From Alphaproteobacteria bacterium (GTDB taxonomy: Bacteria > Pseudomonadota > Alphaproteobacteria > Rs-D84): a stretch of 32,000 bases of DNA. A model generated the notes under the pieces. It was not told where the DNA came from and made no database searches. It was given only the letters and a program-made list of their open reading frames with translations. The translations under genes and the position numbers were made by a program. Shown one piece after another: positions 3,417 to 22,314 of this stretch. Every line of letters begins with the position of its first letter. Positions within the stretch are counted from its first letter, which is position 1. The stretch is from assembly GCA_017475605.1 (NCBI GenBank), contig JAFVFD010000005.1:360001-392000 (forward strand), in the 5' to 3' direction.

Positions 3417-3464
3417 TAAACTCTCTCTCGCACAATATTGTTAAGTATTTTAACAATTTTTCTG

Positions 3465-3493
3465 TTGAATTACAATTATTTTTTGTCTAGGAT
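3465..3493 (+). promoter_or_regulatory. Candidate sigma70-type promoter for tRNA-Cys (and possibly recF)
   Basis: TTGAAT (3465..3470), 17-nt spacer, TAGGAT (3488..3493). The predicted TSS is about 7 nt before the tRNA 5' end. Confidence 0.35.
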
Positions 3494-3506
3494 TCAAAGG
3501 CAAATT

Positions 3507-3580
3507 GGCCAGGTGGCAGAGTGGTTATGCAGAGGACTGCAAATCCTTGTATGCCGGTTCGATTCCGACCCTGGCCTCCA
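3507..3580 (+). tRNA. tRNA-Cys (anticodon GCA), CCA encoded
   Basis: Hand-folded cloverleaf. The 7-bp acceptor stem is GGCCAGG/CCTGGCC, the anticodon loop is CUGCAAA, the T-loop is TTCGATT (one C-A mismatch in the T stem), and the 3' end is TCCA. Confidence 0.9.
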
Positions 3581-3593
3581 GATTTCTTGTATT

Positions 3594-4670
3594 ATGATTG
3601 AAACGCTTGTACTTACCGATTTTCGTAACCATACAATGTGTCGAATAAAAACGCATGGTCGGCAAAATGTGATTATTGTTGGCCCGAATGGTGCCGGTAA
3701 AACAGCAATACTGGAAGCTCTTTCTATATTATCTGGCGATCGCGGAATGCGTGCCGCACAAATGACGGATATTGCGCGCTTTGGTGGCAACGGCGGTTTT
3801 TCAATTTTCGCAACATTATCAGACGATACTGAATTATCTGTATCTTTTGTATCGGGCGATGCAAATCGCCACGCAAAAATAGACGGCGATAATGCGCCAT
3901 TGGCCGATTTAACATCGCATTTACCAATGGTGTGGATAACCCCACGCGAAGACAGACTTTTTGTCGATTCCGCCGCCGAAAGACGCGCGTTTTTTGATCG
4001 CCTGGTATCAAGTTTTGATTCCACACATTCGGGGCGCGTTGCGCGGTTTACTAAATTATTATCTGAACGCGCGTTCGCATTAAAATCTGGGCGCGATATG
4101 CGCTGGGTTGATGCGCTGGACGATCAAATCGCCGCCACCGCCACCGCTATCGCAGATGCGCGAATAAAATACGCGGGCGAATTAAATTATTTTCTGGAAA
4201 ATTGCGCGGTGTCGGTGTCTGGAATGTTGGAACAAATGTTCATTGACCAACGGTCAGCGGGCGATATTGAACGCGCATATCGTGAATACCTGGGAAATAA
4301 TCGTGAAATCGTTGGCGATAAAATGGTAATTGATGGTGTACATAAATCAGATTTTGGTGTGTTTAATAAACAATTAAAATTACCTGCGCATTTAACAAGT
4401 ACCGGCCAACAAAAGACCGTTTTAATGGAATTGATTTTGGCACACGCAAAATTATTACATACACGCACAAACAAAAAACCATTTATTTTATTGGACGAGG
4501 CCGCTGCCCACCTTGATGCGAATGCCCGCGCAAAATTGTTTGCGGACCTGGCCACATCAGAGGCGCAGGTTTGGGCAACCGGACTGGATGCGGATGCATT
4601 CAGTGATGTGCCAAATGCTGTATTTGTTTCTTGCGCGGATGGCGATATAAGTAATATACTGGTTTCATAA
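3594..4670 (+). CDS. recF: DNA replication and repair protein RecF
   Basis: N-terminus MIETLVLTDFRNH, Walker A GPNGAGKTAILEA, signature STGQQKT, Walker B ILLDEAAAHLD. The start was moved from 3438 to the ATG at 3594 because the longer ORF reads through the tRNA gene. Confidence 0.9.
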   Translation: MIETLVLTDFRNHTMCRIKTHGRQNVIIVGPNGAGKTAILEALSILSGDRGMRAAQMTDIARFGGNGGFSIFATLSDDTELSVSFVSGDANRHAKIDGDNAPLADLTSHLPMVWITPREDRLFVDSAAERRAFFDRLVSSFDSTHSGRVARFTKLLSERAFALKSGRDMRWVDALDDQIAATATAIADARIKYAGELNYFLENCAVSVSGMLEQMFIDQRSAGDIERAYREYLGNNREIVGDKMVIDGVHKSDFGVFNKQLKLPAHLTSTGQQKTVLMELILAHAKLLHTRTNKKPFILLDEAAAHLDANARAKLFADLATSEAQVWATGLDADAFSDVPNAVFVSCADGDISNILVS

Positions 4671-5211: not shown

Positions 5212-5239
5212 TTGCTTTTATTCGGAATTATGTTAAAAT
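5212..5239 (+). promoter_or_regulatory. Candidate promoter of leader RNA A
   Basis: TTGCTT (5212..5217), 16-nt spacer, TAAAAT (5234..5239), with a TGT extended -10 context. Confidence 0.5.
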
Positions 5240-5245
5240 CAGAAT

Positions 5246-5430
5246 TGAATCCAATGGGAATTGGGTTCGGGCTGTGGTAAGCCTTCAAAAATCCGGTGCA
5301 AAAGCATCGTAATCTGAAAATTCGGCGCAAACGCACCGTTTGAGCCCCGATTTATTGGTCGGGGAGCAGACTAGTTTCTTGGTCTTTACCACCTCTCCGG
5401 TCACCAATTTCGTTGGTGGTTTATTTTTTT
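5246..5430 (+). promoter_or_regulatory. Structured leader RNA A (about 185 nt, riboswitch/attenuator-like, class unknown)
   Basis: Hand-folded helices. H1 is 5247..5255/5260..5268 with a GGGA loop. The long-range H2 is 5274..5281/5385..5392. Three hairpins are 5294..5309, 5345..5364 and 5369..5384. The antiterminator 5354..5366/5393..5408 is mutually exclusive with the terminator at 5401..5419. Boundaries are approximate. Confidence 0.55.
5401..5430 (+). terminator. Intrinsic terminator ending leader A, 18 nt before the next start codon
   Basis: Stem TCACCAA/TTGGTGG, loop TTTCG, then TTTATTTTTTT. Confidence 0.6.
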
Positions 5431-5448
5431 CAAAAAAAGGGGAATGAT

Positions 5449-5805
5449 ATGAAAAAATTATCTTTAACACTGTTTATTTTGTTATGTAGTGCTTGTACGA
5501 TAAGCGACACATACTACAAACCAGATGTCGGCAGAAAAAATGTTGGTTCCGTATACGGAACTATTACTAATGAAAGCACTTCTTTTTTTGGACAATCTGA
5601 AGACACCACCCCAAAATTCGAGAAAATATCAGATTATTGTTGGTATTTATTGGATTTTAAAATGAACAGTGATTGTTCTCCAGATATGATTGCAAACAAT
5701 TATGGTCTGGAAACCATCACAGAAATAAACACACAATGGCAGTTATTCCCTTTTGTGTTAGTACAAAGAACCAATTTAATTGGTATTCCGAAAGAGGATA
5801 AATAA
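5449..5805 (+). CDS. Small secreted protein or possible lipoprotein, function unknown (AT-rich orphan)
   Basis: A GGGGA SD precedes the ATG at 5449. Signal peptide MKKLSLTLFILLCSAC carries an imperfect lipobox (LCSAC). I recognise no conserved domain. Confidence 0.6.
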   Translation: MKKLSLTLFILLCSACTISDTYYKPDVGRKNVGSVYGTITNESTSFFGQSEDTTPKFEKISDYCWYLLDFKMNSDCSPDMIANNYGLETITEINTQWQLFPFVLVQRTNLIGIPKEDK

Positions 5806-5834
5806 AAAACACCGGTATTTGCCGGTGTTTTTTT
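5806..5834. terminator. Bidirectional intrinsic terminator (copy 1 of a repeated palindrome)
   Basis: AAAAACACCGGTATTTGCCGGTGTTTTTTT between convergent genes. The T-tract overlaps the gpsA stop codon. Confidence 0.8.
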
Positions 5835-10789: not shown

Positions 10790-10819
10790 AAAAAAACACC
10801 GGCATTTGCCGGTGTTTTT
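10790..10819. terminator. Bidirectional intrinsic terminator (copy 2 of the repeated palindrome)
   Basis: AAAAAAACACCGGCATTTGCCGGTGTTTTT between convergent parB and pal. Confidence 0.8.
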
Positions 10820-20207: not shown

Positions 20208-20210
20208 AAT

Positions 20211-20816
20211 CTATTCGTTTAAAAAAACAGAGATGTTTTTAGCAAAATTTTCTAATGTTGTATGATACTCTTTTGATGTATCTAAAAAAACAAACTTGTT
20301 TTTTGATTCATTTTGATATTGTTTGCTTATGTTTATAAAATTTTGAATGCATAATCTTATTTGTTTATCATCAAGTTTGCTTACCGGGCTATTATTATCA
20401 AATTTTTTAATATTCGTAATTTTTTCATCTATATCCGCATTTGGGTATCCAATTACAACTATTTTGCACTTGTTTTGATCGAACAAATATTCTGATTGAG
20501 AAGGGGTAATTTGTGATCCTTCGAATATTATTGGAAAGTCTGATGTGGTTTCCTTAAAAAACCGTCTAACAAATCGGTAAAAATTACGTCGCAGTAATTT
20601 TTTACTTGTTCTTTTTACCGATGGAAAAATGTGTCGCAACGGTCTAATAAATATTCTCCACGCCAAACTCGCACGCTGGTCTGTTAAGCCACCAATAATA
20701 GCATCGCCTGACATCAATGTAACAGGAATCCCTTCTGTCCCAAGTTGTTCTATAACATATTTTACTAACGTAGATTTTCCTGCACGTGGCACACCAATTA
20801 TTATTAAGTTTTTCAT
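20211..20816 (-). CDS. P-loop NTPase / small-molecule-kinase-like protein, function unknown (AT-rich orphan)
   Basis: Walker A at the N-terminus (IIIGVPRAGKSTL) and a candidate Walker B (PIIFEG). I recognise no other motif. Composition is much more AT-rich than the flanking mutS and truB. Confidence 0.7.
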   Translation of the reverse strand: MKNLIIIGVPRAGKSTLVKYVIEQLGTEGIPVTLMSGDAIIGGLTDQRASLAWRIFIRPLRHIFPSVKRTSKKLLRRNFYRFVRRFFKETTSDFPIIFEGSQITPSQSEYLFDQNKCKIVVIGYPNADIDEKITNIKKFDNNSPVSKLDDKQIRLCIQNFINISKQYQNESKNKFVFLDTSKEYHTTLENFAKNISVFLNE

Positions 20817-20842
20817 TTTGTATTCTGCCTTTTGTTTTTGTT

Positions 20843-20875
20843 AAAAACAAAAACCACCAAAAATGAAATTGGTGG
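20843..20875 (-). terminator. Intrinsic terminator ending leader B, upstream of the P-loop gene
   Basis: On the minus strand: CCACCAA-TTTCATTT-TTGGTGG followed by TTTTTGTTTTT. Confidence 0.6.
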
Positions 20876-21034
20876 CAGGAGGTTCGTTACTATAATTGTT
20901 AGGAAAATAGTGTACAGTATTGGATATTTCTGCACCCTCCTGCCATATAACGGCAGGAGATGTTTTTCATCATTCCCTGATGCTAACAATTTCGAGGTAA
21001 CGACACCCCAATACAGATAAAATCACCTGTATCA
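20843..21034 (-). promoter_or_regulatory. Structured leader RNA B (about 190 nt, apparent paralogue of leader A)
   Basis: Hand-folded on the minus strand. H1 is 21032..21027/21016..21011. The long-range H2 is 21002..20997/20890..20885 plus 20991..20983/20902..20894. Three hairpins are 20982..20968, 20959..20937 and 20935..20912. The 10-bp antiterminator 20945..20936/20882..20873 overlaps the terminator 5' arm. Boundaries are approximate. Confidence 0.55.
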
Positions 21035-21040
21035 AGCCTG

Positions 21041-21069
21041 ATTATACATTAAATTTTTAAAAATAACAA
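21041..21069 (-). promoter_or_regulatory. Candidate promoter of leader B
   Basis: On the minus strand: TTGTTA (21069..21064), 17-nt spacer, TATAAT (21046..21041), preceded by TGT. Confidence 0.5.
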
Positions 21070-21086
21070 TTTATATTATATTTATG

Positions 21087-21115
21087 TTGTAAATCCGTTA
21101 ATCAAAATAGATAAT
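21087..21115 (+). promoter_or_regulatory. Candidate promoter placing the TSS on the truB start codon (leaderless)
   Basis: TTGTAA (21087..21092), 17-nt spacer, GATAAT (21110..21115). The ATG at 21122 lies 6 nt after the -10, and there is no SD. Confidence 0.4.
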
Positions 21116-21121
21116 ATAAAT

Positions 21122-22283: not shown

Positions 22284-22314
22284 AAAAAAACACCGGCATT
22301 TGCCGGTGTTTTTT
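22284..22314. terminator. Bidirectional intrinsic terminator (copy 3 of the repeated palindrome)
   Basis: AAAAAAACACCGGCATTTGCCGGTGTTTTTT between convergent rpsO and infB. The core is identical to copy 2. Confidence 0.8.

Follow-up and report, generated by a model that had tools for sequence, protein, structure and literature searches.

What does an intrinsic terminator do when it lies between a promoter and the start of the next gene? The question is raised by a 32,000-nucleotide stretch of DNA (hereafter the window) from a metagenome-assembled Alphaproteobacteria bacterium represented in ruminant gut datasets. Here the minus strand specifies a predicted RNA of approximately 190–195 nt that ends in an intrinsic terminator and lies 5′ of an open reading frame (ORF) for a P-loop protein. 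We call this RNA leader B; a loosely similar paralogue in the same window is leader A. Our tentative answer is that leader B may be a cis-acting transcription attenuator in the 5′ untranslated region (UTR) of a P-loop kinase gene. The case is built upon thermodynamics and geometry, in a single sequence and one paralogue, and conservation forms no part of it: leader B occurs in one strain only, so that its function is read from one sequence.

An earlier reading of the sequence alone had described a promoter, a 5′ hairpin, a two-part long-range helix, three hairpins and a terminator, and every one of these was recovered where that reading had placed it (Table 1). The minimum free energy of 20817–21040 is −77 kcal/mol as against −47.2 ± 4.3 kcal/mol for 200 dinucleotide shuffles (z = −6.93), none of which (0/200) folded as well. 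The architecture itself was predicted over 21036..20842, which begins at the probable transcription start and ends with the U-tract, and in that fold the predicted helices have pair probabilities that are mostly 0.9–1.0 (0.8–1.0 for the closed domain). The palindrome of hairpin P3 can also be written CTCCTGCC/GGCAGGAG. No tandem repeats were found in the leader B RNA. Promoter-like matches are common in this DNA – 49 across the window, with 42.8 expected from shuffles – and because the count is no lower than in shuffles the leader B promoter is plausible by virtue of its position only.

Table 1. Positions, strands and properties of the features discussed (coordinates are those of the window unless otherwise given).
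Feature	Position	Strand	Remarks
Strain-variable cassette, 913 bp	20208..21120		P-loop ORF, leader B and divergent promoter region; between mutS stop and truB start
P-loop kinase-fold ORF, 201 aa	20211..20816	-	AlphaFold pLDDT 91
Promoter-like TTGTTA-17-TATAAT	21069..21064 and 21046..21041	-	10/12 consensus match; start site inferred
5′ hairpin GAUACAGGUG/UAUCUGUAUU	21010..21033	-	10 bp, loop AUUU; pair probability 0.98–1.0
Closed multi-stem domain (P0/P1a/P1b)	20879..21009	-	three hairpins inside; probabilities 0.8–1.0
P0 GGGGU/ACCUC	21009..21005 and 20883..20879	-	long-range helix extension, absent from the sequence-only reading
P1a UCGUUAC/GUAACGA	21003..20997 and 20890..20884	-	contains CGUUAC/GUAACG
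P1b AAUUGUUAG/CUAACAAUU	20991..20983 and 20902..20894	-	from fold and inverted-repeat listing
GAAAUUG	20993..20987	-	complements end of terminator 5′ arm plus loop, CAAUUUC (20871..20865); absent from the sequence-only reading
Hairpin P2 CAUCA-GGGAA-UGAUG	20968..20982	-	probabilities 0.95–0.98
Hairpin P3, segment 1 CUCCUGCC and segment 2 GGCAGGAG(G)	20936..20960	-	probability 1.0
Hairpin P4 GUGCAG-12 nt-CUGUAC	20912..20935	-	probability 0.98–1.0
Segment 3 CCUCCUGCCA	20873..20882	-	pairs with P0 or segment 2; 4-nt overlap with terminator 5′ arm
Intrinsic terminator GCCACCAA-UUUCAUUU-UUGGUGGU (20876..20853), then UUUUUGUUUUU	20842..20876	-	probability 0.9–1.0
Leader A	5212..5448	+	same overall shape; shared 45-nt 3′ module CCUCUCCGGUCACCAAUUUCGUUGGUGGUUUAUUUUUUU
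Repeated bidirectional terminator	5804-5833, 10792-10819, 22285-22314; locus L092, 11962-11991		fourth copy just outside the window

A critical issue is how the P-loop gene could be expressed. Its ATG, at 20816, lies 25 nt past the U-tract, and in these 25 nt we found no usable promoter; with no room for one between terminator and ORF, expression must be by read-through. Neither does the terminator serve a gene upstream, since truB is divergent. A terminator within a 5′ UTR, with no promoter before the ORF, is the arrangement that marks an attenuator, and it is the arrangement found in leader B. Across the window and related loci (L003–L010, L035–L048, L092 and L093), convincing 5′-UTR terminators placed 20–40 nt before an ORF start were found in leaders A and B only; the other matches comprised a site inside truB on the opposite strand (L003) and an end-of-gene terminator (L045–L048).

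Evidence that the terminator may be open to competition comes from three segments of leader B, CUCCUGCC, GGCAGGAGG and CCUCCUGCCA, which form an exact repeat, inverted repeat and repeat. Segments 1 and 2 make up a hairpin of −14.6 kcal/mol. Segment 2 can pair instead with segment 3, UGGCAGGAGG (20945..20936) joining CCUCCUGCCA (20882..20873) in a duplex of −19.5 kcal/mol that takes GCCA out of the terminator stem. Both the CTCCTGCC/GGCAGGAG hairpin and this 10-bp alternative had been proposed from inspection of the sequence, and they withstood scrutiny: the pairing is perfect, and when the upstream 154 nt were dinucleotide-shuffled 1000 times only one shuffle paired equally well with the terminator-proximal 18-mer. 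When the antiterminator is forced, the best structure adds a further helix between GAAAUUG and CAAUUUC, and through this complementarity the entire 5′ half of the terminator can be taken up in the alternative fold. The energies of the two folds were compared at two lengths of transcript. In RNA cut just before the terminator 3′ arm they differ by 1.4 kcal/mol (−57.3 versus −55.9 kcal/mol); in the full-length RNA the terminator fold is favoured by 13.5 kcal/mol. Near-equality in the cut transcript, followed by a win for the terminator at full length, is in these modelled energies the pattern that would be expected of a kinetic switch. The sequence elements, the folding energies and the non-random nature of the alternative pairing were all computed directly. 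The repeat CUCCUGCC/GGCAGGAG/CCUCCUGCC could also have an origin other than switching.

A mechanism can be proposed from these elements. Transcription would begin immediately past the TATAAT; in the nascent RNA a protective 5′ hairpin would fold first, and the closed multi-stem domain, with P0, P1a and P1b arranged around three hairpins, would fold second. Within the closed domain segment 2 (GGCAGGAGG) would be locked with segment 1 in P3, which would thereby serve as an anti-antiterminator, and the upstream G-run would hold CCUC in segment 3. This would leave the terminator (GCCACCAA/UUGGUGGU with its U-tract) free to form, and transcription would stop 25 nt before the ATG. Were the domain to remain unformed, or to be opened, segments 2 and 3 could form their 10 bp and GAAAUUG could pair with CAAUUUC; both alternative helices would cover the 5′ half of the terminator, and RNA polymerase would read into the P-loop gene. 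This would be the behaviour of an OFF-type riboswitch expression platform, for which a ligand, a protein, an RNA or temperature are candidate signals. Termination, its conditionality and the direction of the switch are what we infer from the folds.

Competition between terminator and antiterminator, of OFF type, is found in many Firmicutes riboswitches. Like these platforms, leader B sits in a 5′ UTR with a closed multi-stem domain directly upstream of an intrinsic terminator; its alternative helix is likewise formed from part of the domain and the terminator 5′ arm, and the competing folds are near-isoenergetic. Unlike them it has no Rfam match, no conserved aptamer core and no orthologues, and its antiterminator draws on the 3′ arm of a hairpin inside the domain and not on the 3′ strand of the closing helix. 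The comparison to Rfam (release 15, 4227 families) returned, at gathering thresholds, a tRNA at 3507-3577 as the sole match in the whole window; at E ≤ 10 the surroundings of leaders B and A gave only chance-level matches to eukaryotic snoRNAs and miRNAs, far below threshold.

A 1:2 / 2:3 / 3:4 arrangement of segments is typical of proteobacterial trp- and his-type attenuators. Leader B has this arrangement, and shares with leader-peptide attenuators (trp, his, thr) both the four-segment layout and an intrinsic terminator just before the ORF. It also contains a 24-codon ORF, MMKNISCRYMAGGCRNIQYCTLFS (AUG at 20973/20970), that runs across segments 1 and 2 and whose codons 5–8 span segment 1. 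Were a ribosome to stall on segment 1, at Cys codons for instance, segment 2 could be released to form the antiterminator. We nonetheless consider ribosome-mediated attenuation highly improbable. The candidate ORF, unlike those of known leader peptides, has a poor ribosome-binding site, in which a Shine-Dalgarno-like GGGA is spaced 0–3 nt from the AUGs; its start codons fall inside hairpin P2, and it has no regulatory codon run; the gene downstream does not belong to amino-acid biosynthesis, and a comparable ORF is absent from leader A.

Leader A lies between sspB and an orphan ORF of 118 aa with secreted/lipoprotein-like character (5449-5805), and the sequence-only reading regarded leader B as its second copy. 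That description holds for the 3′ end and for overall shape and fails for the remainder. The two leaders have in common a 45-nt 3′ module, comprising CCUC and a near-identical terminator (alignment z = 5.9), and the string CACCAATTTC..TTGGTGGTTT (..TTGGTGG), which both possess, is found nowhere else in the window; over their 150-nt bodies the alignment is no better than that of shuffled sequences (z = −0.02). The common coarse shape begins with a 5′ hairpin, continues with a long-range stem around a three-hairpin junction and ends in a terminator. By tree-edit distance A and B stand 111 apart. Shuffles gave 186 ± 19, and 150 natural segments of the window gave 183.5 ± 17, no control coming as close; once the terminator is removed, 1–2 of 300 natural segments match the closeness of A to B, which places the pair in approximately the top 0.5% of controls. 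RNAalifold, given a sequence-based MAFFT alignment of A and B, returned a consensus of −12 kcal/mol and no usable structure. Our data support the same architecture and the same platform in the two leaders.

Closer claims of kinship fared less well. The elements had been said to follow the same order in A and B, yet the hairpin whose 3′ arm matches segment 3 comes second of the three in B and third in A. The long-range helix had been said to keep its pairing while changing its sequence, as though by covariation; the observation rests on two sequences whose bodies are non-homologous and so cannot count as covariation, for with two sequences only a compensatory change is indistinguishable from non-homology. 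In the alignment of A and B, no junction or loop nucleotides are conserved in a way that would point to a shared ligand pocket. Moreover, the antiterminator of leader A, at −11.4 kcal/mol with three G-U pairs, is equalled by 219 of 1000 shuffles and does not rise above chance: an exclusive, above-chance antiterminator helix over the 5′ arm of the terminator is found in leader B and not in leader A.

The shared terminator must also be set against the habits of the genome. A near-identical bidirectional terminator of 28–30 nt, AAAAAACACCGG-CAAAT(G/A)-CCGGTGTTTTTT, lies between convergent genes at three loci in these 32 kb. Given that the genome re-uses this other terminator verbatim at three or more loci, possession of a common terminator is weak evidence for a shared RNA family, and the likeness between the terminators of A and B may reflect genome habit in place of any constraint imposed by a switch.

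T-box leaders are present in many copies per genome, with a conserved antiterminator/terminator module and differences elsewhere. There is a likeness here to A and B, which are two leaders in one genome with a common 3′ platform and architecture, differing bodies and unrelated genes. The likeness is one of logic only. A T-box sequence, a specifier loop and a Stem I motif are all lacking from A and B, the Rfam T-box model gave no match, and the genes that follow are not related to aminoacyl-tRNA. Leader B is plausibly a new, lineage-specific member of the class of terminator/antiterminator leaders. A bolder proposal is that A and B are undescribed, lineage-restricted modular attenuators that travel with, or are grafted onto, strain-specific cassettes in uncultured ruminant-gut Alphaproteobacteria. 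It would join a conserved platform (CCUC and the CACCAAUUUC..UUGGUGG terminator, with arm and loop pairing to an upstream GRAAUUG) to a variable four-way-junction sensor, and genes newly gained would come under one shared conditional terminator. We think this decidedly unlikely.

The same data can be read in another way. The unit from promoter to terminator may be an independent sRNA gene of ~190 nt that landed in intergenic space, the ORF being expressed by leaky read-through; the sRNA might possibly act in trans via an exposed, C-rich, anti-Shine-Dalgarno-like CCUCCUGCC. A promoter, a protective 5′ hairpin and a terminator predicted to be strong all belong to the unit itself, which is missing at orthologous loci in relatives, as a separately acquired gene would be. 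The C-rich motif and terminator common to A and B are of the sort often shared by paralogous sRNAs, and the lack of significance of the leader A antiterminator fits as well. In the dominant fold, however, the CCUC is paired with the G-run and not exposed, and a seed function leaves unexplained the highly significant complement to segment 3 within leader B. Both units, furthermore, fit precisely into the interval that separates a −10 box from the Shine-Dalgarno site of an ORF and leave 20–25 nt to spare, which is the geometry of a leader. An sRNA gene is an unlikely, though serious, alternative to attenuation. Type III toxin-antitoxin loci likewise combine a promoter, a structured RNA, a terminator and an ORF, as does the leader B locus on its accessory cassette; the latter differs in having no tandem repeats and in encoding a kinase fold in place of an endoribonuclease, and leader A differs in that it precedes a small secreted protein. 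A CsrA sponge was considered and dropped, there being only one or two GGA loops.

Insight into the history of leader B comes from comparison of contigs that encode an identical S15 protein. The cassette is missing from strains that are 95–98% identical (L036, L039, L044) and from relatives at 80–87%; in all of these 6 nt separate the TAA of mutS from the ATG of truB, and in the 95–98% identical strains the junction reads TAA-tcgcgt-ATG. That close strains have only this 6-nt gap identifies 20208–21120 as a clean presence/absence polymorphism. The 3′ end of mutS shows lower, mosaic identity to the cassette-less strains (78–95%, versus 97–98% on the truB side), which suggests recombination at the mutS/truB cassette site. 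truB has a promoter-like sequence of its own, TTGTAA-17-GATAAT (21087-21115), that ends 6 nt before the ATG.

More distant relatives, at ~70% nucleotide identity, carry the P-loop gene in the same slot between mutS and truB. Their intergenic region is a mere 75–92 bp and is leaderless, with TTTACA-17-TATAAT, a UTR of ~25 nt and a Shine-Dalgarno site; the TTTACA-17-TATAAT is ~25 nt closer to the conserved GGATTTACAA block. Nor is there a leader at a still more distant P-loop homologue that occupies a different locus. The gene behind leader A has one homologue (50% identity), which is non-syntenic; it follows a tRNA gene, its promoter is plain and it lacks a leader. Both leaders, then, fill a gap whose two borders, a −10 box and a Shine-Dalgarno site, directly adjoin each other in relatives. 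The question had been posed whether the leader always precedes the same gene families; it does not, the homologues of the P-loop and lipoprotein genes elsewhere having simple promoters and short UTRs. Neither leader is conserved with its gene, and both precede accessory genes. Leader B, in particular, is not ancestral to the P-loop gene and is carried on a 913-bp accessory cassette specific to this strain group.

Wider searches gave a consistent picture. BLAST of A and B against the collected related loci and the flanking loci L092–L094 found only copies from the same strain, 100% identical. A scan for CACCAATTTC..TTGGTGGTTT gave 24 matches among genome contigs, 43 among metagenome contigs and 6 among viral contigs; those from genomes and metagenomes belong to unrelated taxa and have no CCUC context, and are therefore chance matches, and the six viral matches to the terminator module are presumed to be so too. 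Neither of these two collections, of genomes and of metagenomes, includes the source genome, so that the scans are silent on further copies within it. The cassette had no match among phages or plasmids. Orthologous loci yielded no leader homologue that could lend covariation to a conserved sensor, and neither did the collections of genomes, metagenomes and viruses; with no homologue of leader B in the sequences searched, there is neither covariation nor cross-species conservation to draw upon.

Such a distribution raises the possibility that leader B has no regulatory logic. It could be a recombination or MITE-like scar, the long-range helix being a 15–27-nt inverted repeat, or a patchwork of re-used terminators in which the GC-rich palindrome at 20937-20959 acts on the plus strand as a terminator for mutS transcripts running antisense through the cassette. 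The clean presence/absence polymorphism of the cassette accords with this, as do the re-use of identical terminator sequences at several loci of the genome, the plus-strand palindrome with its trailing ATGTTTTTCA, the resemblance of the long-range helix to terminal inverted repeats, and the want of conservation beyond this strain. Of the features that define a MITE, however, only the inverted repeat is present: there is no target-site duplication, the other copies are at the same locus in the same strain, and neither a second near-identical copy nor tandem repeats exist. Phage, plasmid and viral collections gave no match. The alternative pairings align exactly with the 5′ arm of the terminator and are near-isoenergetic at the decision point, which would be unexpected of a scar, and leader A has the same shape despite a different sequence. 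We judge an origin as scar or patchwork to be improbable, if by no means fanciful.

Three further candidates were set aside. That leader B is a diverged duplicate of the gene's own promoter, Shine-Dalgarno site and start, an idea prompted by the repeated AUGAAAAAC, was rejected when local alignments proved no better than shuffles. A retron was dropped as there is no reverse transcriptase nearby, and an integron attC site as there is no integrase nearby and the GTTAG/CTAAC order is the reverse of attC R″/R′. On the plus strand at 20937-20969, the CTCCTGCC...GGCAGGAG palindrome (20937..20959) followed by ATGTTTTTCA forms a terminator-like site, an arrangement that could terminate mutS transcripts antisense through the P-loop gene.

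The P-loop protein is, on the strength of its predicted structure, a kinase-fold protein: the closest PDB folds, at TM 0.5–0.6, are PSTK and the adenylate, gluconate, dephospho-CoA and shikimate kinases. It matched no Pfam or NCBIfam family above threshold and no defence-system model, and PADLOC gave no convincing match. Its 30 detectable homologues are all from similar (ruminant-gut alphaproteobacterial) metagenomes, and viral contigs contained no relatives. Neither the kinase fold nor the position of leader A, which precedes an unrelated protein, gives a clear hint as to a ligand. Within the ORF, codons 6–9 contain AAUUGGUG (20792-20799), which perfectly complements CACCAAUU (20867-20874) in the 5′ arm of the terminator, and which encodes the conserved IIGV strand that precedes the Walker A motif. 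Pairing of AAUUGGUG with CACCAAUU could enclose the ribosome-binding site in read-through transcripts.

Terminator-based riboregulator platforms are considered uncommon in Alphaproteobacteria. If the switch is real, leader B would be one more such regulator for this class, and a cis-regulatory RNA, so far unclassified, of an uncultured gut lineage that has been little studied. As a regulatory leader it would also have arrived together with a strain-specific accessory gene, as opposed to having been inherited with a conserved operon, and would bear upon the control of newly acquired genes; it is chiefly for this arrival with a strain-specific gene cassette that leader B is notable. Were it a constitutive dampener, or a scar, its interest would be local only.

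Several observations from elsewhere in the data deserve mention. In two independent Logan assemblies a contig ends at position 5272 and another begins at 5243; the 30-nt overlap (5243-5272) is exactly the 5′ hairpin of leader A. The branch in the assembly graph indicates that a co-occurring variant, or another copy, has the hairpin and then diverges. The sole homologue of the leader A gene lies in a small islet beside a tRNA gene (L045, 2600-3400; also in L046–L048). Three copies of the 3′ end of this tRNA (GCTACCAAAA...) bracket the islet, and its downstream terminator, CCCCGATTTATTCGGGG, has 12 consecutive nucleotides in common with the CCCCGATTTATTGGTCGGGG hairpin inside leader A. The tRNA gene of the window, at 3507-3577, scores 59 bits with Rfam and has the anticodon GCA (Cys), as read from the cmscan alignment. 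It falls inside the N-terminal extension of the listed recF ORF (3438-4670), from which it follows that the true start of recF is further downstream.
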